DNA of 44,748 nucleotides from Escherichia phage Schulenburg: the sequence record MK931438.1, one strand, 5' to 3'. The translations under genes and the position numbers were made by a program. Of this stretch, positions 13 through 42,191 are shown one piece after another. The number at the start of each line of letters is the position of its first letter. The stretch's first letter is position 1. The notes below the pieces were generated by a model. The model was not told the DNA's origin, did not search any database, and saw nothing but the letters and a program-made list of their open reading frames with translations.

Positions 13-597
13 ATGCGCTCTGATGGTCAGACGCATATGTCAGGGGGTTATATGAAACTTACACTTAAGCAACCATCACCTGAGGTGGTGCAAGCTGCAC
101 ATGAAGAGGCTGTTAGCGCCAACCGTCGCCGTAAACGACCACGCGGCAAACAGAGCCTTTACCAGTCGTCCCGTAATTCCGCGGCATTGTGGAACCCGGA
201 CTATTGCGACGAGTTAATCCGGTTCTTCGACCGCAACTCGTGGGAACTCGTACCTACGTCCAAGGGTGACGAACGCCCGCTGATTCAGGATAAACCCCCG
301 TCACTGGCCCGCTTCGCCTTACACATCGGCGTCACTATCCCTATTATTAAGCTGTGGCTGCGTGAGATTCCGGCTTTCGCAGAAGCCTATGAAACCGCTC
401 AGGCGCTGGAAGAGGCGTATTTCACTGAGACCGGGGCCGCGGGTATCTCCGCTACGTTTGCTGCCGCGAAGTTAGGGTTAAGCAAAGAGAAACCGGTTGA
501 ATCCACCGAAGAGACCGCACCAACTGAGATTGTATTCACGGTAGCAGAGCCGGTAGGTAAAATCGTTACCACGAACATGGGCGAGGTAGAGGAATGA
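13..597 (+). CDS. terminase small subunit (putative)
   Basis: ORF immediately upstream of and overlapping (ATGA) the large terminase gene; start uncertain (ATG at 13, 37 or 52; GGGGG SD before 52); frame is open to the window edge so it may be 5'-partial. Confidence 0.45.
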   Translation: MRSDGQTHMSGGYMKLTLKQPSPEVVQAAHEEAVSANRRRKRPRGKQSLYQSSRNSAALWNPDYCDELIRFFDRNSWELVPTSKGDERPLIQDKPPSLARFALHIGVTIPIIKLWLREIPAFAEAYETAQALEEAYFTETGAAGISATFAAAKLGLSKEKPVESTEETAPTEIVFTVAEPVGKIVTTNMGEVEE

Positions 598-1844
598 GTA
601 TCCAGCTATCCGCCCCTCAGGCGCTGTTCCTGAACTGCGATAACAAATACAAGGCCTATGTTGGTGGTTTCGGTAGTGGCAAGACGTTTGTTGGCTGTCT
701 GGACCTTCTTACGTTCATGCTTAAGCACCCCGGTACGCGCCTGGGCTATTTCGGCCCGACCTACCCGGCTATCCGTGACATCTTCTACCCTACGTTCGAG
801 GAAGCGGCTAACCTCCTGGGCCTCGATGTACTGGTTAAATCTGGAGACAAAGAGGTCGTCGTCACACGCGGTAAGACGGTAATCGGTACAGTAATCTGCC
901 GCTCGATGGATAACCCCGGCTCTATCGTTGGCTTCAAAATTGCGGCTGCGGTCGTGGATGAACTTGACGTATTGAGTCGCGAGAAAGCGGAACTGGCGTG
1001 GAACAAAATCGTAGCCCGTATGCGTCTTGTTATTCCTGGCGTAATTAACCACATCTCCGTTACCACGACGCCGGAGGGATTCAAGTTCGTCTATGCCAAG
1101 TTCAAAGAGAACCCGACACCAAGTTACTCGATGGTGCAGGCTTCCACCCACGAGAACGCCAGATTCCTTCCGCCTGACTACATCAGCTCGCTGACCGAGA
1201 CTTACCCAGCGCAACTGATTAACGCGTACCTGAACGGTGAGTTCGTTAACCTGACATCCGGCAGCGTGTATTACGCGTATGACCGCCGCAAGCACCGCAG
1301 CAAAGAGACAATTCAACCTGGTGACACTTTGTACATCGGCCAGGACTTCAACGTTACGAAGAACGCCAGCGCCGTGTATGTGCAACGTAAAGACGGCTGG
1401 CACGCGGTAGCGGAACTGAAAGGCCTGTTCGATACGCCGGATACCGTGCGCGTAATTACAGAGAAGTGGAAGTCACAAGGCCACCGCATCGTCGTTTACC
1501 CCGACGCCAGCGGCAAGAATCGCAAAACCAACTCGGCGTCAATCTCTGATATTGCATTACTCCAGCAGGCGGGGTTTGATGTTCGCGCTAAATCCGCCAA
1601 CCCCCCGGTTAAAGACCGTGTTTTAGCCGTGAATACCGCACTGGAAAAAGGTAAGCTGTGGGTTAACGACCACTTATGCCCCGAGATAGCGAAGACGCTG
1701 GAGCAGCAGGCATACGACGATAATGGAGAGCCAGCTAAAGACGGCGTAATCGACCATATGGCGGATGCCCTCGGCTATCCTGTAGTTTACGAGATGCCGG
1801 TGGTTAAACCCGTAATCAACATCCCGGTGACTTTCGCACTTTAA
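594..1844 (+). CDS. terminase large subunit
   Basis: Walker A-like GGFGSGKT near N-terminus; 416 aa; sits between putative TerS and portal. Confidence 0.8.
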   Translation: MSIQLSAPQALFLNCDNKYKAYVGGFGSGKTFVGCLDLLTFMLKHPGTRLGYFGPTYPAIRDIFYPTFEEAANLLGLDVLVKSGDKEVVVTRGKTVIGTVICRSMDNPGSIVGFKIAAAVVDELDVLSREKAELAWNKIVARMRLVIPGVINHISVTTTPEGFKFVYAKFKENPTPSYSMVQASTHENARFLPPDYISSLTETYPAQLINAYLNGEFVNLTSGSVYYAYDRRKHRSKETIQPGDTLYIGQDFNVTKNASAVYVQRKDGWHAVAELKGLFDTPDTVRVITEKWKSQGHRIVVYPDASGKNRKTNSASISDIALLQQAGFDVRAKSANPPVKDRVLAVNTALEKGKLWVNDHLCPEIAKTLEQQAYDDNGEPAKDGVIDHMADALGYPVVYEMPVVKPVINIPVTFAL

Positions 1845-1856
1845 GAGGATTATTCA

Positions 1857-3338
1857 ATGTTAACTATGAACGGTCAGAATCAGGGTGTTAAGACAAAACA
1901 CCGGGAATGGCTGCATCACTTCGATAAATGGCAGAAGGTACGCCACGCACTGGAAGGCGACCTTATTCGCTATCTTCGCAACGTCGGGAAGAACGAGCCG
2001 GACCCGACCTACGCGGCACAGCGGCAGGAAGAATACGAGAACGGTGCTATCTGCTACAACTTCACTAAACGTACCCTGGCGGGGATGGTCGGCAGTGTCA
2101 TGCGCAAAGACCCTGAGCAGATTATTCCGCCTGAACTGGAGTACCTGCTACGTAATGCCGACGGTTCCGGTGTCGGGCTGTGGCAGCACGCGCAGGACAC
2201 GCTGATGGAAATTGACTCAGTAGGCCGTGGCGGGTTGCTGGTGGACGCGCCGGAGACCGCCGCCGCAACGGCAGCAGAGCAGAACGCAGGATTATTAAAC
2301 CCGGTCATCGCTTTCTATACCGCAGAGAACATCATCAACTGGCGCCTGACCCGCATCGGTTCAGTTAACCGCGTGACAATGGTCGTGTTGCGCGAAGTAT
2401 GGGAATACTCAGAACCAGGTGCAGAGTTCGAAACAAAGTTCGGTGAACAATACCGCGTTCTCGATTTGATTGACGGGCGCTACCGCCAGCGCATTTACCG
2501 CTTCGATGCCGAAGGTGGTGCGCAGGATGAAGTAATCGAAATATTCCCGGAACTCGGCGAACAGTTACGCGGTAAAATCCCGTTTACGTTCATTGGGGCA
2601 AGCAACAACGACGCCACTATAGACGATGCGCCTTTGCTGCCGTTGGCTGAACTCAATATCGGGCATTTCCGCAACAGCGCAGACAATGAGGAGTCCAGCT
2701 TCGTTGTAGGTCAGCCCACTCTGTTCATCGCCCCGGGCGGGAATATGAGCATGGAGCAGTGGAAAGAAGCCAACCCACACGGGGTACGCATGGGGTCGCG
2801 TTCAGGCCATAACATCGGTGAGGGCGGCAATGCGTTTCTGGTTCAGGCGGGGGAGAACAACCTCGCCAAGCAGAACATGCTGGATAAAGAGAATCAGGCC
2901 ATCCAGATTGGCGCACAGCTTATTACCCCGACGCAGCAAATCACCGCTGAATCGGCCCGTCTGCAACGTGGCGCTGATACGTCTGTTATGTCGACAATCG
3001 CACGTAACGTAAGCATGGCGTACACCGATGCGTTGCGCTGGGTAGCTGCGATGCTCGGGCTTAGTGACGGTACTGAGATTGAGTTCAAGCTGAATATGGA
3101 GTTCTTCCTGCAACCGATGACCGCTCAGGACCGCGCTCAGTGGATGGCGGACATTAATGCCGGTCTGCTGCCAGCGACCGCATACTACGCCGCGTTGCGT
3201 AAAGCAGGGGTGACTGACTGGACCGACGAGGATATTCAGAACGCTATTGAGGACGCACCTCTGCCGTTAGGTGCTGTTACTCAGGTGGCAGGAGAGATTC
3301 CGCAGTCGGTGCAGCAACAAGATGTCACTCAGCAGTAA
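1857..3338 (+). CDS. portal protein
   Basis: 493-aa ORF directly after TerL with GAGGA SD; synteny terminase-portal-MuF. Confidence 0.65.
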   Translation: MLTMNGQNQGVKTKHREWLHHFDKWQKVRHALEGDLIRYLRNVGKNEPDPTYAAQRQEEYENGAICYNFTKRTLAGMVGSVMRKDPEQIIPPELEYLLRNADGSGVGLWQHAQDTLMEIDSVGRGGLLVDAPETAAATAAEQNAGLLNPVIAFYTAENIINWRLTRIGSVNRVTMVVLREVWEYSEPGAEFETKFGEQYRVLDLIDGRYRQRIYRFDAEGGAQDEVIEIFPELGEQLRGKIPFTFIGASNNDATIDDAPLLPLAELNIGHFRNSADNEESSFVVGQPTLFIAPGGNMSMEQWKEANPHGVRMGSRSGHNIGEGGNAFLVQAGENNLAKQNMLDKENQAIQIGAQLITPTQQITAESARLQRGADTSVMSTIARNVSMAYTDALRWVAAMLGLSDGTEIEFKLNMEFFLQPMTAQDRAQWMADINAGLLPATAYYAALRKAGVTDWTDEDIQNAIEDAPLPLGAVTQVAGEIPQSVQQQDVTQQ

Positions 3339-3348
3339 GTTCACATAT

Positions 3349-3371
3349 AGCCCCGAAAGGGGCTTTCTTAT
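3349..3371 (+). terminator. intrinsic terminator-like hairpin after portal gene
   Basis: agcccc-gaaa-ggggct stem-loop followed by TTTCTTAT. Confidence 0.45.
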
Positions 3372-3407
3372 AGTATGCTATTAACTTTAGCGCCACAGGG
3401 TTTATCT

Positions 3408-4451
3408 ATGAGCTTACTTACATCTCTAATCAGCCACCAGATATGGCTGCAACGCACTGCATCCGGTGAGGTGAAAGACCTCGCGCCGTTCATTAAGGAG
3501 ATGCGGGACGAAATAAAACGGCAGGTGCTGTTATTCGGTGACGACGGGCGGAGCACTGCGCGACTGAATAAACTGTTACTCGACCTTGAAGAAGCGCTAA
3601 CCGGACTTACCGGCGATTGGCAAACAAAGCTGACAGAAGACCTTATGGAACTGGCGGCGTATGAGGCCGAGTGGAATGTAAAGACACTGACCACCAACGT
3701 AGATGCGGAATTTGTTACGCCTACTGCCGAACAGGTGTGGTCCGCTGCCGAGTTTCAACCCTTATCATTAAGCGACAAGCCTGTTGATTTCACTAAGCTG
3801 ATGTCGGGATGGGGTGAAACCGAAGTAGCACGTCTCGTAACCGGCGTTAAGATGGGCTTTGTTCAGGGTAAGACAACACGGCAGATTGTTAAGAATGTTG
3901 TTGGTGCTGGTGGTTTGGCGGACATTTCAGAACGTAACGCGGCTACTGTAATCCGCACCGCGCTGTCTCATGTATCCAACGAGGCCCGTAACGAGACGTA
4001 CCGCCAGAACGACGACATTATCGAGAAGTACGAGTGGGTGTCGACGCTGGACAGCCGTACCAGTACGATTTGTAGGGCCAGAGACGGAATGACGTGGGAA
4101 ATCGGTAAGGGGCCGATGCCCCCGGCCCATTTTGGGTGCCGAAGTACCACGGCACCTGTAATCAGTTCAGAGTTCGACTTCCTCGATAAAGGTGCAAAAC
4201 GTGCGGCTAAGGGCGCGGACGGAGGTACTCAGGTAAGCGCAGACACCACTTACTACGAGTTCCTGAAACAACAACCGGCGTGGTTCGTGGACGAAGCACT
4301 CGGGCCGACCCGCGGTGCGATATTCAGGAATAGTGGGATATCGCCAGAGGAATTCCGGGTAATATCTGTCGACGCTTTTGGTAGACCTTTAACCCTGAAG
4401 GAGATGGCGGAGTTAGACAACAGGGTTGCTGAATATCTTAGGTCGGTATAA
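3408..4451 (+). CDS. head morphogenesis protein (Mu gpF / SPP1 gp7-like)
   Basis: Follows portal; C-terminal motif AHFGCRSTTAP resembles the MuF-family H-x2-CRC signature; ATG 3408 (AGGG SD) preferred over ATG 3375, which lies in the terminator T-tract. Confidence 0.7.
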   Translation: MSLLTSLISHQIWLQRTASGEVKDLAPFIKEMRDEIKRQVLLFGDDGRSTARLNKLLLDLEEALTGLTGDWQTKLTEDLMELAAYEAEWNVKTLTTNVDAEFVTPTAEQVWSAAEFQPLSLSDKPVDFTKLMSGWGETEVARLVTGVKMGFVQGKTTRQIVKNVVGAGGLADISERNAATVIRTALSHVSNEARNETYRQNDDIIEKYEWVSTLDSRTSTICRARDGMTWEIGKGPMPPAHFGCRSTTAPVISSEFDFLDKGAKRAAKGADGGTQVSADTTYYEFLKQQPAWFVDEALGPTRGAIFRNSGISPEEFRVISVDAFGRPLTLKEMAELDNRVAEYLRSV

Positions 4452-4507
4452 AGTACACCTAGTAGCTAGCTTTGGTCGGTGAACTACTAAAAATAGAGAA
4501 AGAATAT

Positions 4508-4565
4508 AACCCCATGAAGGTATGCCTATCTCCGGCATCGACCAACCTTCATGGGGTTTTCTTAT
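4508..4565 (+). terminator. long hairpin plus T-tract (terminator-like)
   Basis: 12-14 bp stem ccccatgaaggt / accttcatgggg with ~23-nt loop, followed by TTTTCTTAT; the alternative ATG 4522 lies inside this hairpin. Confidence 0.45.
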
Positions 4566-4575
4566 AGGATTTAAT

Positions 4576-5145
4576 ATGGGAATTGTTTTTGGGGTAGGTA
4601 TTAATGATGTTTCACCAATAAGTTGCGGAGGGGTGCATATAGCGTCCTACGCCGGGTGGAAGAACATGTTAAAGAGGTGCTACGACAAGAAATGGCAGCA
4701 AAGAAACAGAACCTATACAGGTTGCCGTGTGTCTGACGATTGGTTGGTGTTCAGTAATTTCAAGGTCTGGTTTGATAATTTTTATGTACCTGGGTGGCAG
4801 ATAGATAAGGATTTACTGAACCCGGGAAATAAGGTTTACGATGCTTCTAACTGTGTTTTCATCCCCAAGTCCCTTAACACTTTCCTCACGGCCCACGACG
4901 CTCTTCGAGGCAAATACCCACTAGGTGTACATTTTCATAAACAAAAGAAAAGATTCATTGCCCAAGTATCCGTGGGTGGTGTATCTGAACAAATAGGCGC
5001 TTACGAAACCGCCCAAGAGGCACACGTAGCCTGGTTTCATAGAAAAATTGAATTAGCATATGAATACAAAGGCCTTTGCGATAGCATAGACCCACGCCTT
5101 TTCGAAGGCGTCTTACGTAAGATTAACTCAATGAAAGAGGTTTAG
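4576..5145 (+). CDS. HNH/AP2-type homing endonuclease-like protein
   Basis: N-terminal W-x2-M-x2-RC motif (GWKNMLKRC), degenerate His-Me-like region (IDKDLL..NCVFIP), C-terminal AP2-like segment (YETAQEAHVAW); AGGA SD 6 nt before ATG 4576. Confidence 0.55.
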   Translation: MGIVFGVGINDVSPISCGGVHIASYAGWKNMLKRCYDKKWQQRNRTYTGCRVSDDWLVFSNFKVWFDNFYVPGWQIDKDLLNPGNKVYDASNCVFIPKSLNTFLTAHDALRGKYPLGVHFHKQKKRFIAQVSVGGVSEQIGAYETAQEAHVAWFHRKIELAYEYKGLCDSIDPRLFEGVLRKINSMKEV

Positions 5146-5148
5146 TTT

Positions 5149-5607
5149 ATGGGCTTTTTTAAAGTAACTGATGTGCCGTCGCGTCGCGTAGTCCAATACG
5201 CCCGTGTATCCGGTTCTGGTGAGAACGTAACCTACGTTGAAGATGAAAGTGTACTAGGTACACCTGTAGACGAGATGCCGTATGTGGACAAGACCGGTAT
5301 CGCACTCTCTGCTGCTGGTATGCTTTATGAGATTCCGTATCTGGCAGATGCTGGTGATGTGTATTTCTCTGTGCAACCGAAAGACACCGAGCTGGTCGAC
5401 GGTAGCGCCACCATCACCGTCGAAGTTAAGGCGGGTAAAGCGCCGTATGTACTGACCTGGTACAAAGACGGGAAGGAAGTGGTGAACGCCCCGGAAGAGG
5501 CTCTGTCTCTGACTGTTAATGCGGCTGGTGAATACTTCACTAAAGTTACTGATGCCGATGGTGCGGAGGCCGTAAGCAAAGCGGCGAAGGTCTCTAAACC
5601 AGGATGA
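5149..5607 (+). CDS. Ig-like domain protein (possible capsid decoration)
   Basis: Beta-rich 152-aa ORF with Ig-like motif TVEVKAGKAPYVLTWYKDGKEV; AAAGAGG SD; in head module. Confidence 0.5.
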   Translation: MGFFKVTDVPSRRVVQYARVSGSGENVTYVEDESVLGTPVDEMPYVDKTGIALSAAGMLYEIPYLADAGDVYFSVQPKDTELVDGSATITVEVKAGKAPYVLTWYKDGKEVVNAPEEALSLTVNAAGEYFTKVTDADGAEAVSKAAKVSKPG

Positions 5608-5609
5608 TA

Positions 5610-5642
5610 AAAGGCCCCATAATGGGGCCTTAGTTTTATTTA
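5610..5642. terminator. bidirectional intrinsic terminator
   Basis: 8-bp stem aggcccca / tggggcct flanked by A-run upstream and TTTTATTT downstream; lies between convergent genes 5149-5607 (+) and 5636-6157 (-). Confidence 0.6.
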
Positions 5643-6157
5643 AATCGCGCAGGCATTAACACCATAAAGGCCGTGTTTGAAAATTGTATTTTGCATCCTC
5701 TGGTTTGGTCCTGGAAATCGAAACGAGCAATTTCATTTTTGTATGCCTTAGAAATCTTGTACGCGTCTGCCAAATAGCGCAGAGTGAACCCTATACTACC
5801 GACAACACCTGGTGTGATGTGCGCCACGCGTCTCCAGTCAGGAAAGTTTCCTTCTACAACATCTACCGGAAGTGTACATATAAGCGCACGATTATCGTCA
5901 TAGAAAGATACACTGCCGTTGTCGTGGTCTACCTCTGCGTAGTTAAATTTAGAAGGCTCTCTCCCTTTAATGTCGACGAGAACCCCTTTCTCAACGTTCG
6001 TCTTCACATTGTCGCAGAACAATCTATGACCGTCCGTAGACACTATCAATCCTTCAGGGTCTATGTAAAAAGCGTTCAAATAGTATCGAACATCATTTTT
6101 AGCCCTGCATATTTTCGCCCCTACATACGCAGGGAAAGTAATTACTGTAGTAACCAT
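5636..6157 (-). CDS. hypothetical protein (opposite-strand moron)
   Basis: 173-aa ORF on minus strand inside the head module; AGGAGG SD; own promoter motif upstream and convergent terminator; locally AT-rich. Confidence 0.6.
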   Translation of the reverse strand: MVTTVITFPAYVGAKICRAKNDVRYYLNAFYIDPEGLIVSTDGHRLFCDNVKTNVEKGVLVDIKGREPSKFNYAEVDHDNGSVSFYDDNRALICTLPVDVVEGNFPDWRRVAHITPGVVGSIGFTLRYLADAYKISKAYKNEIARFDFQDQTRGCKIQFSNTAFMVLMPARFK

Positions 6158-6184: not shown

Positions 6185-6213
6185 ATAGTACCCTATTATA
6201 TTGGTGCGCGCAA
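6185..6213 (-). promoter_or_regulatory. type-B promoter/operator (TTGCGC-N17-TACTAT over palindrome AATAGGGTACTATT)
   Basis: Minus-strand TTGCGC, 17-nt spacer, TACTAT; inverted repeat AATAG-N4-CTATT overlaps the -10; about 30 nt upstream of moron start 6157. Confidence 0.45.
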
Positions 6214-6279
6214 ACTATTTATTTACGTATTCCAGTTATTCCACTCAATTGTAAACGTTGGAATAAACTATTCGAATAG

Positions 6280-6308
6280 TTGACTTTTCACTGAAAATAT
6301 GATAAGCT
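6280..6308 (+). promoter_or_regulatory. sigma70-like promoter (TTGACT-17-TAAGCT) of conserved RNA element, copy 1
   Basis: TTGACT, 17-nt spacer, TAAGCT; near-identical promoter and downstream sequence recur at about 37877. Confidence 0.5.
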
Positions 6309-6515
6309 CCACCTGAGCTTGTGAAGTATGAACAAGCGACCGCGGCGCGGGCAGGTAACGGAGCGGGACGTAAGTCCTGAGTGTAGTTACGCTGACGCGT
6401 TCGGAAGGGCCATAGTCTATTGCTTGTGTAAAAAGTAACTGGTTTACTGAGATTACGCCGTTTCTATGTTTAAATGATAAGGACTAGCGCCCCGCTTTAA
6501 GGCGGGGCTTTACTT
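6309..6515 (+). ncRNA. candidate promoter-proximal structured RNA / leader element (copy 1)
   Basis: About 40 nt (cctgagcttgtgaagtatgaacaagcgaccgcggcgcg) identical to copy 2, then about 130 nt diverged but alignable; hairpins gcttgt-N9-acaagc and ggac-GTAA-gtcc; ends with stem gccccgc/gcggggc plus TTTACTT just before the Rz SD. Confidence 0.3.
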
Positions 6516-6532
6516 ATCGAGAAAGGGGAAAC

Positions 6533-6919
6533 ATGAATCTTAAAGCAACTGTCGTAGCAGGAGCATGTTTCATCCTCCTGACATACGGCTACGGAATCTA
6601 CCAGTATCGCAGCGGCTGGGACGAAGGCCGGGCGAATCTCGTTTCGCAGCAACAGCAGAAAGCACAGGCTGAGTTAGCGAAGAAAACACAACGGCAGCAG
6701 CAGGATGAATCAAAGGCCGCCGCCGCTGACAACGAAGGCAAGACGAAATCAGAGGTGCTTACCCGTGAAGTCGTTAAGTACATTAAAACGCCTGGCCGCA
6801 GCGTGTGCACTTTCGACGATGCTCGCGTCCTGCTCAAGTCCCACGCCGTTGCCAACGCCAATTCCATCCCCGGATACGACGATGATGCAGCCGCCGTGCA
6901 AACTGGCACCGCCAAGTAG
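6533..6919 (+). CDS. i-spanin (Rz-like)
   Basis: N-terminal TM helix, then Q/A/K/E-rich coiled-coil region; 128 aa; contains an overlapping +1-frame lipoprotein ORF. Confidence 0.6.
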   Translation: MNLKATVVAGACFILLTYGYGIYQYRSGWDEGRANLVSQQQQKAQAELAKKTQRQQQDESKAAAADNEGKTKSEVLTREVVKYIKTPGRSVCTFDDARVLLKSHAVANANSIPGYDDDAAAVQTGTAK

Positions 6920-8864: not shown

Positions 8865-8880
8865 GGTTAAGATATAATCG

Positions 8881-8908
8881 AGAGGGACTTCGGTCCCTCT
8901 TTTCATTT
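8881..8908 (+). terminator. intrinsic terminator after major capsid gene
   Basis: agagggac-ttcg-gtccctct hairpin followed by TTTCATTT. Confidence 0.6.
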
Positions 8909-13273: not shown

Positions 13274-13310
13274 AAGGAAAAGGCCCCTTTCGGGGCCTTT
13301 TCCTTATTCC
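13274..13310. terminator. strong bidirectional intrinsic terminator
   Basis: Perfect 14-bp stem aaggaaaaggcccc / ggggccttttcctt with TTTC loop, A-rich 5' side and T-rich 3' side; between convergent genes. Confidence 0.7.
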
Positions 13311-15248: not shown

Positions 15249-15289
15249 GGTGTAGCTCCTGTTTGAGTTAACATTGTTGGTGTAAGTGA

Positions 15290-15318
15290 ATAGTATCCTA
15301 TTATGTTGGGGTGCGCAA
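15290..15318 (-). promoter_or_regulatory. type-B promoter/operator (TTGCGC-N17-TACTAT over palindrome AATAGGATACTATT)
   Basis: Same architecture as sites near 6185, 38175 and 39101; about 40 nt upstream of the Imm-like gene. Confidence 0.45.
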
Positions 15319-28048: not shown

Positions 28049-28348
28049 CTAACTATAATAGTTTGCTATTATGTCGTCAACCTCTTCTTTTGTTCCTACT
28101 ACAAAAACATTTGCGTCACGTTTACGAAGCCGTTTGTGCTCCCGTAACTGATGTTCCTCCGGTTCCGTGTTTTCATCCTTCTTCACCTCTACAAACCATA
28201 TAACCCCTCCCGGAAGGACAACCAACAGGTCAGGCGCTCCGTTTCTACCCTCATACACTATCTTACGAACGAGGCCGCCAAGGGCCTCGAATTGCTCTTT
28301 TGCGTATTTCTGAATCTTGCCTTCCGGAGTCATGAGCGCAAAACCCAT
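28049..28348 (-). CDS. VRR-NUC domain nuclease
   Basis: PD-(D/E)xK-type motif PDLLVV...WFVEVKKDE; 99 aa. Confidence 0.6.
   Translation of the reverse strand: MGFALMTPEGKIQKYAKEQFEALGGLVRKIVYEGRNGAPDLLVVLPGGVIWFVEVKKDENTEPEEHQLREHKRLRKRDANVFVVGTKEEVDDIIANYYS
28052..28080 (-). promoter_or_regulatory. type-A promoter with operator in spacer (TTGACG-17-TATAGT; ATAATAG-N4-CTATTAT)
   Basis: Minus-strand -35/-10 with 17-nt spacer containing a perfect 7-bp inverted repeat; overlaps the 3' end of the VRR-NUC gene. Confidence 0.55.
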
Positions 28349-31753: not shown

Positions 31754-31782
31754 ACTATAATAGCTAACTATTCAGGTGTCAA
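31754..31782 (-). promoter_or_regulatory. type-A promoter with operator in spacer (TTGACA-17-TATAGT; AATAG-N4-CTATT)
   Basis: Perfect -35, 17-nt spacer containing inverted repeat gAATAGTTAGCTATTat; immediately after the DUF2800-like stop. Confidence 0.55.
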
Positions 31783-34290: not shown

Positions 34291-34319
34291 ACTATAATAG
34301 CGAACTATTCACTTGTCAA
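34291..34319 (-). promoter_or_regulatory. type-A promoter with operator in spacer (TTGACA-17-TATAGT; AATAG-N4-CTATT)
   Basis: Minus-strand promoter divergent from the HTH regulator gene; inverted repeat gAATAGTTCGCTATTat in spacer. Confidence 0.55.
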
Positions 34320-37384: not shown

Positions 37385-37591
37385 ATCGCCTGCAAACCAC
37401 GCGTGCGCAGAATCATAGAAACGACATTTACTTAATACCTCGATTGGCATCTTAATAATGCGCGTCGGTTCCGACAAATGATTAGGCTTACATATTTCTA
37501 CATAGAATCCGCTGTCAGTAATTTCTGACGCAAACTTAAACCGGTATTTAACTTTACCGTCTTCAAAGTAACAACCCATACGCCCAATCAT
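37379..37591 (-). CDS. hypothetical protein (70 aa)
   Basis: ORF coupled to upstream AlpA-like gene. Confidence 0.5.
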   Translation of the reverse strand: MIGRMGCYFEDGKVKYRFKFASEITDSGFYVEICKPNHLSEPTRIIKMPIEVLSKCRFYDSAHAWFAGDK

Positions 37592-37770
37592 TTCACGTTC
37601 TCCTTAATCCATGCTTCAACTTTATTACGGTCAAATGTACCCGGTAAACGGCGGCCCATTACTTTAATACAGCAGTCAGGGAATTTACCACTGCGCAGCC
37701 AGTTATTAATTGTCTGACGTGTCACACCGATACGTTCTGCTACTTCATTCTGGGTCATGTAATGTTGCAT
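37588..37770 (-). CDS. AlpA/Xis-like DNA-binding protein
   Basis: MTQNEVAERIGVTRQTINNWLRSGKFP HTH; ATG at 37770 with AGGAGA SD. Confidence 0.5.
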   Translation of the reverse strand: MQHYMTQNEVAERIGVTRQTINNWLRSGKFPDCCIKVMGRRLPGTFDRNKVEAWIKENVK

Positions 37771-37876: not shown

Positions 37877-37905
37877 GTTGACTTTTACTAAGAAATATGG
37901 TAAGC
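37877..37905 (+). promoter_or_regulatory. sigma70-like promoter (TTGACT-17-TAAGCT) of conserved RNA element, copy 2
   Basis: Same hexamers and spacing as the copy at about 6280. Confidence 0.5.
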
Positions 37906-38105
37906 TCAGCCTGAGCTTGTGAAGTATGAACAAGCGACCGCGGCGCGCGGCAGGCGAAACGAGCACGTGTAGCGTGTGGAGTGAGGCTCGCTAGCGCGTT
38001 TGGGAGGCCCAAAGTCTATTGTAATTCCCGCCTAAATATCTAAGTTACTGATTTGCCGTAGGTTATATCCGCAAGCTCACTCACTCTTGGTGCCTTCGGC
38101 ACCAC
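37906..38105 (+). ncRNA. candidate promoter-proximal structured RNA / leader element (copy 2)
   Basis: Shares the about 40-nt core and a further diverged about 130 nt with copy 1; hairpin gcttgt-N9-acaagc; ends near the ggtgcc-ttcg-ggcacc hairpin. Confidence 0.3.
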
Positions 38106-38174
38106 GTTCGTTTCGCTCGCTACACCATTAAACAAAAGAATCACAACGGCAACGTAACCATTTTCAATGAATCT

Positions 38175-38203
38175 CTTGCACACCCCAACATAATAGGATA
38201 CTA
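38175..38203 (+). promoter_or_regulatory. type-B promoter/operator (TTGCAC-N17-TACTAT over palindrome AATAGGATACTATT)
   Basis: About 35 nt upstream of first early gene. Confidence 0.45.
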
Positions 38204-38238
38204 TTCACTTATCGGAACGAGACAGAGGAGTGAGGGTT

Positions 38239-38421
38239 ATGTTTAAGAAGGGTCAGTTGGTTAAAGTAAAAGGGACCAGGGCTTTTTGCTGCGTAGAGTG
38301 GTGTATTGAAATAGATGGGCTTGTTAAGGTTAAAAATGTATTCATAGGCCACTACAGTATATTGCACACGAAAGACATAGAACTCATCGGCAACAATTTT
38401 AAATTCAAAGGGGCGAAGTGA
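38239..38421 (+). CDS. hypothetical early protein (60 aa)
   Basis: ATG with GAGGAG SD; first gene of rightward early cluster. Confidence 0.5.
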   Translation: MFKKGQLVKVKGTRAFCCVEWCIEIDGLVKVKNVFIGHYSILHTKDIELIGNNFKFKGAK

Positions 38422-38984: not shown

Positions 38985-39025
38985 TACGCTGCTGTGTAGC
39001 AGCGTATCATTTTTCTCATTTTTTG
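38985..39025 (+). terminator. intrinsic terminator
   Basis: 9-bp stem tacgctgct / agcagcgta with GTGT loop followed by TCATTTTTCTCATTTTTT. Confidence 0.6.
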
Positions 39026-39100: not shown

Positions 39101-39129
39101 TTGCACGATGGGGAAGAATAGGATACTAT
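39101..39129 (+). promoter_or_regulatory. type-B promoter/operator (TTGCAC-N17-TACTAT over palindrome AATAGGATACTATT)
   Basis: About 35 nt upstream of ATG 39161. Confidence 0.45.
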
Positions 39130-39160
39130 TCATTTACACAAACGAGAGGAGAGGCAGAAT

Positions 39161-41127: not shown

Positions 41128-41436
41128 TTGGATAAATTTACTGAAACAGTGACAGGCTGGCTTCTGGCTGCCGCACTAGCCGGTGGGGTAATCGGACTAA
41201 GGCAACATAAGTCCGCTATTTCCGGCCCTATCGACGGCTTCTGCTTTATTGCAACTGGATTCACTTGCGCCGTATTCGGTGCACCTCTCGCTGCCCAATG
41301 GTTTGGCATTACCGGTGAGCGTGAGATAGCTGGCCTTGGCTTCATTATCGCTATTCTCTGGATGCCTATTTATTCCCGTCTCTCCGGTATCGTCGCCGGA
41401 GAATACATCGCACGTCGAGGAGGTGGCAATGAATGA
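41128..41436 (+). CDS. holin (putative)
   Basis: 102 aa, predicted 2-3 TM helices, charged C-terminus; TTG start; immediately upstream of endolysin. Confidence 0.5.
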   Translation: MDKFTETVTGWLLAAALAGGVIGLRQHKSAISGPIDGFCFIATGFTCAVFGAPLAAQWFGITGEREIAGLGFIIAILWMPIYSRLSGIVAGEYIARRGGGNE

Positions 41437-41710
41437 GTTATTCTGGTTTGGCGGTATGCTCGCTATCGGAGGCACATCGCTGTTTAACGTATACCACCCC
41501 AGCGTTGACGACGGGCTATTCGGTCGGGTGCTCTATATCCTGACCGCTATCGTCTGCGCCGCCGGGTGTATCCACCTGCTACAGGGCAGCGTGTCACCAA
41601 CGTTGCCGGAAACACTAATCACCCTGGTAGCGCTGCGACAGATTCGTCAATCGTGGCTGCATTACCAGTCGAAAGGAGGACATAAGCGTGTCTCGAAACA
41701 TTTCAGATAA
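41429..41710 (+). CDS. holin-like / antiholin membrane protein (putative)
   Basis: 93 aa from ATG 41429 (AGGAGG SD), two predicted TM helices, basic C-terminus; overlaps both neighbours. Confidence 0.45.
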   Translation: MNELFWFGGMLAIGGTSLFNVYHPSVDDGLFGRVLYILTAIVCAAGCIHLLQGSVSPTLPETLITLVALRQIRQSWLHYQSKGGHKRVSKHFR

Positions 41711-42191
41711 TGGATTGCAGTTCAAGAAAGCGTGGGAGAAGTTTCGTGGAACTGCGTACAAAGCCACAAAGAACGAGAAATACTGGACTATAGGCTGGGG
41801 CCATACCGGACCAGATGTGTACGAAGGGCAGAAGATTACCGAGGGTCAGGGGTTGCTGTTACTTAACCGTGATATGCAGTGGGCGGTGAAAGCAGTAGAC
41901 GAGGTGGCGCATCCATCGCTTACCCAGGCCCAGTTTGATGCCGTTGTTGACCTGGTGTTTAACGCCGGAACTGGTGTTATCGCAGCGACTACCGGAACCG
42001 GTAAGGCGCTACGGCAGGGGGACATCGCAGCCTTACGGCACAAGATGAGCCAGTTCATTAACCAGCGCAACCCTAAGACCGGTAAACTTGAACCTGTTCT
42101 GGGCCTGCGCCGTCGTGTAGCGGGTCGCCTGGCGCTGTTCGACGGTAAACCGTGGCAGGAGGCGGAGGATATCGGGAGGGCTGTTAAGTGA
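41688..42191 (+). CDS. endolysin, GH24 phage lysozyme
   Basis: T4-lysozyme-like motifs WEKFRGTAYK and YWTIGWGHTG; GTG start with AAAGGAGGA SD. Confidence 0.85.
   Translation: MSRNISDNGLQFKKAWEKFRGTAYKATKNEKYWTIGWGHTGPDVYEGQKITEGQGLLLLNRDMQWAVKAVDEVAHPSLTQAQFDAVVDLVFNAGTGVIAATTGTGKALRQGDIAALRHKMSQFINQRNPKTGKLEPVLGLRRRVAGRLALFDGKPWQEAEDIGRAVK

Follow-up and report, generated by a model that had tools for sequence, protein, structure and literature searches.

The 5' untranslated regions of the ompA type carry 5'-terminal hairpins that stabilise bacterial and phage mRNAs, and the put RNAs enable E. coli RNA polymerase to resist pausing and termination without a phage protein, via the zinc-binding domain of the beta' subunit. 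Two such elements, putL and putR, are found in the lambdoid phage HK022, where they are paralogous, promoter-proximal antiterminator RNAs that act in cis (PMC9378689). The leader RNA that we describe here resembles the HK022 pair in that (i) there are two paralogous RNAs per genome, each located just after a sigma-70 promoter that heads an operon containing terminators; and (ii) no recognisable N- or Q-type protein accompanies them, the hosts again being enterobacterial.

The window, i.e., the whole 44.7-kb stretch of DNA that was analyzed, is the complete or nearly complete genome of a Kagunavirus (subfamily Guernseyvirinae). Its gene layout, deduced from open reading frames and PHROGs/Pfam matches, begins with terminase, portal and head genes on the + strand (13-5607), followed by a single RusA-like gene on the - strand (5636-6157). 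The + strand resumes with the Rz/Rz1 spanin, scaffold, capsid and connector genes (6533 to about 13229), among them an Rz-like spanin gene (6533-6919) immediately after the copy 1 leader, and continues with tail genes onward to 25753. The replication genes occupy the - strand from 37770 back to 25918, their first gene encoding a 60-aa HTH_17 protein (37588-37770), while small early genes run on the + strand from the ATG at 38239, followed by holins and endolysin (41128-42191) and on into the terminase genes. At 93% identity, the region of interest (37877-38105) matches both Raoultella phage RP180 and many K1G-type phages of E. coli. A sequence-only reading had described it as a promoter-proximal element between the leftward operon and a rightward promoter, and this is indeed where it lies: the HTH gene is on one side and on the other, outside the repeat and ahead of the first early gene, is a second, near-consensus promoter on the + strand (TTGCAC-17-TACTAT, 38176-38204).

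The same reading had proposed that this region is the paralogue of an element near 6280, sharing its promoter, a core of about 40 nt and a diverged but alignable tail. We found exactly two occurrences of the 38-mer CCTGAGCTTGTGAAGTATGAACAAGCGACCGCGGCGCG in the window, both on the + strand (6312-6349 and 37910-37947); it had matches in none of 100 dinucleotide-preserving shuffles, the chance expectation being 0. The repeat as a whole extends over 71 nt at 87% identity (6279-6349 versus 37877-37947), with TTGACT-17-TAAGCT identical in both copies. A covariance model of the leader family, applied to the whole window, recovers 6309-6426 with 137 bits (the type A structured core of copy 1, + strand, which is the reference member of the family) and 37907-38025 with 92.9 bits, and gives no third match. 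Upstream of the -35 hexamer the two loci are unrelated. The paralogy, the common promoter and the common core are thus substantiated by the exact 38-mer, the 71-nt block and the model matches to both copies, whereas the claim of an alignable tail stands up to about 6426 and 38025, respectively; beyond these points alignment is weak and only short motifs, TTACTGA and GCCGT, are in common. The element is a genuine second copy, consisting of a promoter and a folded leader RNA of about 100 bases.

The copy 2 promoter (37878-37906, + strand) comprises the -35 hexamer TTGACT (37878-37883), a 17-nt spacer ending in TGg and the -10 hexamer TAAGCT (37901-37906); in copy 1 (6280-6308, + strand) the corresponding elements are TTGACT (6280-6285), a 17-nt spacer and TAAGCT (6303-6308), and in both copies the spacer ends in the TGn of an extended -10 element. 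Among the six sequence types into which the family divides (A-F, see below), types A-E show no variation in the hexamers or the TG, type F has T(T/A)GACT and TACGCT, and the -10 element takes the form T-A-N-N-C-T in every type (TAAGCT, TACGCT, TAACCT). A simple promoter scanner does not list the leader promoter, since TAAGCT agrees with TATAAT at only three of six positions; we call it a promoter because the -35, TG and -10 elements are conserved across types while the spacer sequence drifts. This conservation pattern is that of a real extended -10 promoter, from which we infer that it fires, with transcription of copy 2 predicted to start at the G/A of 37913-37914. The hexanucleotide AAGTAT (37922-37927, approximately +10 to +15) fits the -10-like pause element NANNAT in types A-D and is absent in types E, F and G, the last being a more distant relative.

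Two side observations concern promoters. Five nucleotides after TAAGCT, both copies contain the near-copy TGAGCT (37901-37918 and 6303-6320), the two words together forming an inverted repeat, AAGCTC..GAGCTT, that spans the predicted start site; type F has an exact second TACGCT 3 nt after the first. Such inverted or direct repeats could constitute an operator or a pause signal. Separately, the genome contains a family of near-consensus sigma-70 promoters (TTGCAC/TTGACA-17-TACTAT/TATAGT) embedded in the longer conserved motif AATAGGATACTATTCA, with sites on the + strand at 38176-38204 and 39117-39147 and on the - strand at 28052-28080, 31754-31782 and 34291-34319. These promoters stand at the head of the early rightward genes and give the leftward replication operon three re-starts; they form a class distinct from the TAAGCT promoters of the leader modules.

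The leader itself is an RNA of about 100 nt that consists of a 5'-terminal hairpin (P1), the dinucleotide GA and a long interrupted arm. In copy 2, P1 (GCUUGU-GAAGUAUGA-ACAAGC, 37915-37935, + strand) is paired in 100% of alignment cells, the sole variants being U-A to U-G. The GCUUGU/ACAAGC stem is that of types A-E; in the same place, type F has ACGCU-UUC-AGCGU and type G has UUCGU-UCU-ACGAA. The arm (37938-38003, + strand), which is supported by covariation, is built from CCG/UGG (YGG across types), a bulged C, GGCGC/GCGUU, GGCAG/CUAGC (GGCAG/CUGNC across types) and an inner helix, and is capped by the apical hairpin CACG-UGUAG-CGUG (37964-37976, + strand). Its internal loop is asymmetric (GGAG versus AGUGUA in type A) and includes a conserved GAGUG that is invariant in types A-E. 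Two registers are possible for the inner helix in type B, CGAG/CUCG and GCGA/UCGC. The arm is followed by a conserved single-stranded segment, GAGGCCCAAAGUCUAUUG (38004-38021, + strand), which reads GGAAGGGCC..CUAUUG in other types, giving the consensus UUCGGAAGGGCC..CUAUUG across the six types.

Support for this fold, which the sequence-only reading had anticipated in calling the element a structured RNA, comes from compensatory changes over 38 distinct sequences. Standard pairs account for 92.1% of the cells in a covariance-model-guided alignment of these sequences, a procedure in which fitting to the model favours structure, as compared with 81.2% after column shuffling (a value of 92.1% was reached in 0 of 500 shuffles) and 28-40% when the pairing partners were slid; both-sided changes occur at 10 pairs and the covariation score is 0.282 versus 0.107. 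At the third pair of GGNGC/GCN'UU, for example, C-G (19), U-A (15) and A-U (3) all occur, and the inner and apical helices have wholly different sequences between types with pairing always kept. RNAalifold, run independently of the model, recovers the same helices, and the minimum-free-energy fold of the copy 1 sequence alone equals the consensus fold (z = -2.3). G-U pairs, which fill about 13% of cells and are invariant at two pairs, both of them in the GGCGC/GCGUU helix, would be A-C mismatches on the reverse strand, and the + strand fold is better than that of the - strand by 7-12 kcal/mol. The element is a structured RNA on the + strand, the fold of which is under selection.

These pairing data also bear on whether the conserved unit acts as DNA, as a start-site operator or as a recombination linker, with copy 2 as a by-product of recombination. 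Several properties would suit such a role: the inverted repeat AAGCTC..GAGCTT and the P1 palindrome overlap the -10 element and the start site, the highly conserved block of copy 1 extends into its flanks (relative to the Salmonella Jerseyvirus S103, 89% at 6201-6300 and 92-93% at 6501-6700, compared with 99% at 6301-6500), core types have moved between genomic slots, and the upstream neighbour differs (RusA-like gene here, methyltransferase gene in S103). Against this, the G-U cells, including the two invariant pairs, would amount to A-C mismatches if the palindrome were one of DNA or if the other strand were the one that paired, and helices that are kept by compensation while their sequence is replaced point to selection on RNA pairing; we therefore consider a DNA-level role very improbable.

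An AUG in the P1 loop opens a small reading frame (MNKRPRR...) of 22 aa in copy 2 (37926-37994) and 36 aa in copy 1 (6328-6438), only the first seven residues being common to both. We rejected it as a coding sequence, as it has no usable Shine-Dalgarno sequence, type E lacks its ATG and the frame is shifted by indels between types. A tertiary pairing between a 5' CCUG and a 3' AGG(G/C) was likewise discarded, the variants at these positions being inconsistent with it.

The position of P1 raises the possibility that the leader is a 5' stabiliser or processing module, one that blocks 5'-end-dependent decay by RNase E, or provides an RNase III site, and so sets the half-life of the mRNA rather than its transcription. 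In types A-E, 1-2 nt separate P1 from the predicted start, and in types F and G the hairpin is at the 5' terminus, leaving at most two unpaired nucleotides at the predicted 5' end, and its position has been kept although its sequence has fully changed. Moreover, the arm, at about 24 bp with interruptions, has the size of an RNase III substrate, and in the early slot the leader can be replaced by unrelated, equally structured modules, as would be expected of a generic physical function. What such a role leaves unexplained is the strict conservation of the unpaired GGCAGG, GAGUG, UUCGGAAGGGCC and CUAUUG, as well as the 99% identity over 200 nt across genera, and we regard it as somewhat unlikely.

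Between the core and the genes, the A/U-rich copy 2 tail (38022-38087, + strand) contains UAUCUAAGUUACUGAUUUGCCGUAGG (38035-38062) and a CTCA repeat (38076-38087); every leader type, whichever slot it occupies, has TTACTGA and GCCGTA in its tail. The tail ends at a GC-rich hairpin with a 7-bp stem and a UUC triloop, UGGUGCC-UUC-GGCACCA (38088-38104, + strand), rather than the previously suggested ggtgcc-UUCG-ggcacc with 6 bp and a tetraloop. It is followed by CGUUCGUUUCG, in which the T-tract is weak (CGTTCGTTTC), so that the hairpin is a weak intrinsic terminator at best. In copy 1, the tail and terminator hairpin occupy 6427-6508 (+ strand), with GCCCCGC-UUUAAG-GCGGGGC at 6489-6508 followed by UUUACUUAU. 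A stable hairpin is present at this position in every leader type; the U-tract is not conserved, a usable one being missing in types B, E, F, G and H, and terminator read-through is therefore not a conserved feature of the family.

Several further observations relate to the tail. The copy 2 hairpin is flanked by (CTCA)n at 38076-38087 and (GTTTC)n at 38104-38119, the copy numbers of which differ among close relatives (more CTCA in L003, one extra GTTTC in L014), indicating that the distance from core to hairpin is unconstrained. It is also bracketed by two invariant words, TTGCCGT (38053-38059) and the complementary ACGGCAA (38146-38152), the latter within GAATCACAACGGCAACGTAAC, a conserved block that immediately precedes the next promoter; a local hairpin is formed by these words in types G and H (TTACGGCA..TGCCGTAA). 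The tail word GCCGTAGGTT (38055-38066) agrees with the RfaH ops element GGCGGTAGnnTG at seven of 10 specified positions. This ops-like GCCGTAGnnT, with its 7/10 match, is found in types B and L022, the dominant type A (6455-6466) lacking the TAG. A boxA-like ACUCUUUUAAGAA follows the hairpin in type E loci, and the window's own sequence is not convincing in this regard.

Given that it has a promoter of its own and a hairpin at either end, the 3' one being GC-rich and in type A followed by UUUACUUAU, the element could also be read as a trans-acting small RNA of about 190-200 nt from promoter to hairpin, which would titrate or guide a host factor, the two copies providing a higher dose and the downstream genes being transcribed by leak-through. 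The extreme conservation across hosts would fit a conserved host target, and the early genes have a strong promoter of their own, so that copy 2 is not needed to transcribe them. The late spanin-capsid operon, in contrast, has the leader promoter as its only recognisable one. The 3' hairpin lacks a U-tract in types F, G and H; a terminator is plausible in type A only; complementary matches within the phage genome reach 10-11 nt, which is the chance level; and neither similarity to E. coli sequences nor a homologue of the element in the E. coli chromosome was found. We thus judge a trans-acting role to be unlikely.

The same layout of a promoter, a covarying core with invariant junction nucleotides, a hairpin and genes is the classical one of a riboswitch-like attenuator, in which the core would be an aptamer for a metabolite, a signal or a protein and would gate the hairpin, thereby timing the late and lysis genes. 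Type B can form an alternative hairpin, UUUGGG-AGG-CCCAAA (37999-38013), that competes with the closing helix CCG/UGG and is seen in the minimum-free-energy fold. On the other side, a search for a conserved, mutually exclusive sensor/terminator pairing found none, the core and the hairpin forming together in the thermodynamically predicted folds; the U-tract is not conserved, and the spacer to the hairpin varies in length. In addition, no known class matches: Rfam 15 at the gathering score gave no match in the whole window, Rfam at E up to 10 gave only chance-level matches for the two copies, and Rfam at E up to 1 gave no match for six related loci. An attenuator of this kind appears improbable to us. 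ARAGORN found no tRNA or tmRNA, and our literature search yielded no description of the leader, genome papers giving only generic promoter and terminator predictions; the leader RNA family is undescribed.

To determine how widespread the leader is, we collected homologues from (i) IMG/VR, via the HTH and scaffold proteins; (ii) pattern scans of three collections; and (iii) GenBank. They fall into six sequence types with one common fold: A is copy 1, B is copy 2, C, D and E are other Kagunavirus copies, and F is the late-operon copy of many Jerseyviruses, which the covariance model finds at 38-47 bits. The pattern scan of IMG/VR returned only contigs of Guernseyvirinae size and one chance match in GC-rich sequence, and in the metagenome and GTDB scans there was no new type among the matches listed, nearly all others being chance matches in GC-rich genomes. 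By these searches, the family is restricted to Guernseyvirinae. One metagenome contig, L156 (OIHY01001419.1), has the upstream flank of copy 1 fused to a core of the copy 2 type with its tail and early genes; it is probably a chimera that arose in assembly across the 71-nt direct repeat, or else a real deletion or recombination product, and was excluded from the evidence.

Of 180 matching GenBank records, 179 contain copy 1 (type A), at 95-99% identity (101 from Escherichia, 65 from Salmonella, and others); in these it heads the late, spanin-scaffold-capsid operon of Jersey/K1G-type phages. In a comparison of the window with S103, the adjacent genes are 66-88% identical, as opposed to 99% for 6301-6500. 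The - strand gene upstream of copy 1, a RusA-like resolvase gene here (5636-6157), is an adenine methyltransferase gene in S103 (L093 3160-3888), and phage SETP3 has no - strand gene upstream of its late-slot leader; copy 1 therefore sits at a mosaic boundary.

The second copy is much less common. It was found in only about 42 of the 180 GenBank records, all Kagunavirus-like, where it heads the rightward early operon, and in 18 of the 40 IMG/VR loci identified through the HTH protein; in the other loci, unrelated structured modules of the L022, L005 and L034 types occupy the early slot. SETP3 has a single copy, in its late slot (5769-5873), and an L022-type module in its early slot. As the second copy is confined to this fraction of genomes and other modules fill its slot, copy 2 is, on sequence grounds, a lineage-specific transplant of the late-operon promoter and core into the early slot. 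The argument that two copies retained in a compact genome point to function is accordingly weakened as far as copy 2 is concerned, but function is supported by the near-universal, 99% conserved copy 1 and by covariation within the copy 2 variants. Type D occurs in the late slot of L053 and in the early slots of L068, L085 and L092, suggesting that the module works independently of its position. The two slots themselves look like old paralogues, since they have in common the -10 element TAAGNT, a 3' 'hairpin + AGYCUAU(A)UU', UUACUGA, GCCGUA and a hairpin before the genes.

Two sets of related modules deserve mention. Types G (loci L369, L373 and L376) and H (L370 and L375), all upstream of an Rz gene in the late slot, are distant relatives with the same promoter style, a 5' hairpin, a GC-rich core, a similar tail and two motifs in common with the leader element: CGGAAGGGYC and a 3' internal-loop motif, (G)UAGCGU(U/A)A versus GAGUGUAG. 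In the pre-gene hairpin of type G, the apical GCUUUAAGGC is kept and the polarity of the stem is flipped relative to type A. The alternative early-slot module lies upstream of the HTH gene in L019, L021-L023, L025, L031 and L032 and at 37530-37760 of L388, its hosts being other Kagunaviruses and the Jerseyvirus SETP3. It consists of a promoter (TTGACA-17-TAAG(G/T)T), a long hairpin with compensated changes in its stem (GCTTAA/TTAAGC, GCCGAA/TTAGGCGGC, GTTTAACCC/GGGTTAAAC), then TTACTGAAC and CTAT(A)TTC, and looks like a second undescribed structured leader.

Homology of the leader to the HK022 put RNAs was ruled out by covariance model and by local alignment. With filters off, the leader model scores at best 7.8 bits in the HK022 immunity region, with no match at putL or putR, and Smith-Waterman scores against putL and putR are within the shuffle distribution, except for one of eight comparisons, which reached a level of one in 500 shuffles. 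No Q-, N- or AlpA-type antiterminator was identified by PHROGs/Pfam among 30 proteins (those of 22 rightward-region open reading frames, the two leftward genes beside copy 2 and the neighbours of copy 1), many of the small proteins being without annotation. The neighbour described earlier as AlpA-like (37588-37770) is no more than a 60-aa HTH_17 protein. As it has no match other than HTH_17, we judged it unlikely to be a Q/AlpA-type antiterminator; the residues of AlpA extend beyond 140 and its N-terminal ring is required (PMC9371919).

Our favoured explanation, which we put forward tentatively and with well under even confidence, is that the element is a cis-acting leader that modifies the elongating RNA polymerase, by a logic similar to that of put. 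Following initiation at a sigma-70-type extended -10 promoter, the folded leader of about 100 nt would be transcribed from about +2, would fold behind the polymerase that made it and would act on that polymerase in cis, alone or together with a host or phage factor. Pausing or termination would thereby be suppressed, both at the hairpin of the leader and at subsequent terminators, located at 8880-8901 and 13278-13302 (late side) and at 38088-38104 and 38985-39006 (early side). The family has its home at the start of the late operon, with its Rz spanin, scaffold, capsid and connector genes, and copy 2 is this promoter and core transplanted into the leader slot of the early operon.

We favour an effect on the polymerase in cis because the core is fused to a promoter at the head of an operon and works in either slot, because it is conserved between phages whose hosts share an identical polymerase, and because no protein antiterminator is recognisable. 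The core always adjoins the conserved promoter and always heads a + strand operon, and in each operon there are hairpin or terminator signals after the leader and further inside, those of the late operon including 6489-6508. The 99% identity of copy 1 between E. coli and Salmonella phages, with 66-88% in the flanking genes, would fit recognition of an invariant host machine such as RNA polymerase. Several findings speak against the cis model: a strong promoter follows each early terminator (38176-38204, and the repeat of the motif at 39117-39147), the copy 1 unit ends at about 13300 with only one internal terminator, a promoter-like site (15268-15296) precedes the tail genes, unrelated modules can fill the early slot, the leader hairpin has no conserved U-tract, the core-to-hairpin distance is unconstrained and no similarity to put was detected in sequence or by the model. 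The case for a need for processive antitermination is weak. In its strongest form, this explanation is rather unlikely: the leader would then represent a second RNA class, with no evolutionary relationship to the first, whose members bind the host polymerase that made them and confer resistance to pausing and termination without a phage protein. Virulent siphophages (Jerseyvirus and Kagunavirus) would drive their late operon with it, and it would be portable enough for some lineages to have copied it ahead of the early one.

Guernseyvirinae are among the most frequently isolated phages of E. coli and Salmonella and are candidates for therapy and biocontrol, and the leader may bear on how they time gene expression with the host polymerase alone. 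The most conserved 200 nt of these genomes are a non-coding leader RNA, supported by covariation, at the head of the late operon. Should it act on RNA polymerase, it would be a second independent example of RNA-only elongation control, and synthetic operons would gain a compact, portable part. As a stabiliser, sensor or decoy, it would still provide a handle on late gene expression and on engineering in the subfamily. The six or more natural types and the swap between slots amount to a ready-made set of compensatory mutants.

Among known systems, the leader is similar to ompA-type 5' untranslated regions in that a long operon mRNA begins, to within a few nucleotides, with a hairpin, but a much larger, sequence-conserved core extends beyond the terminal hairpin. 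Like the Q-dependent PR'-6S-tR' region of lambda and the PalpB/AlpA system of P. aeruginosa, it has a constitutive-looking sigma-70 promoter, behind which come a leader some 200 nt long, a hairpin or terminator, and lysis genes ahead of morphogenesis genes; here, copy 1 (type A) is followed by the Rz/Rz1, scaffold and capsid genes. It differs from these systems in that the -10-like pause element is not conserved (AAGTAT at about +10 is present in types A-D only) and in that the fold of the leader is under selection, the fold of the lambda leader not being known to be needed. It differs further in lacking a Q or AlpA homologue among the proteins scanned, the 60-aa HTH protein being without the part that forms the exit-channel ring (PMC9371919).

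With the other modules of Guernseyvirinae (F, G and H in the late slot; L022, L005 and L034 in the early slot), the leader shares its position, a -10 element with TG (TAAGNT, TACGCT or TAACCT), the 3' 'hairpin + AG(C/U)CUAU(A)UU', UUACUGA, GCCGUA and a stable pre-gene hairpin, although the 5' cores are not alignable, with the exception of type F (38-47 bits). The put RNAs of HK022 differ from it in sequence and profile, with no similarity detected, in the size of the core (about 70 nt, compared with about 100 nt in the leader) and in helix pattern; they belong to a lambdoid phage, whereas Guernseyvirinae are virulent and have a facultative second copy, and activity on RNA polymerase is for the leader only proposed here. 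Nonetheless, the two domains of the leader, P1 and one long interrupted arm separated by GA, may correspond to the two bulged stem-loops of put, a short first hairpin and a longer, interrupted second stem.
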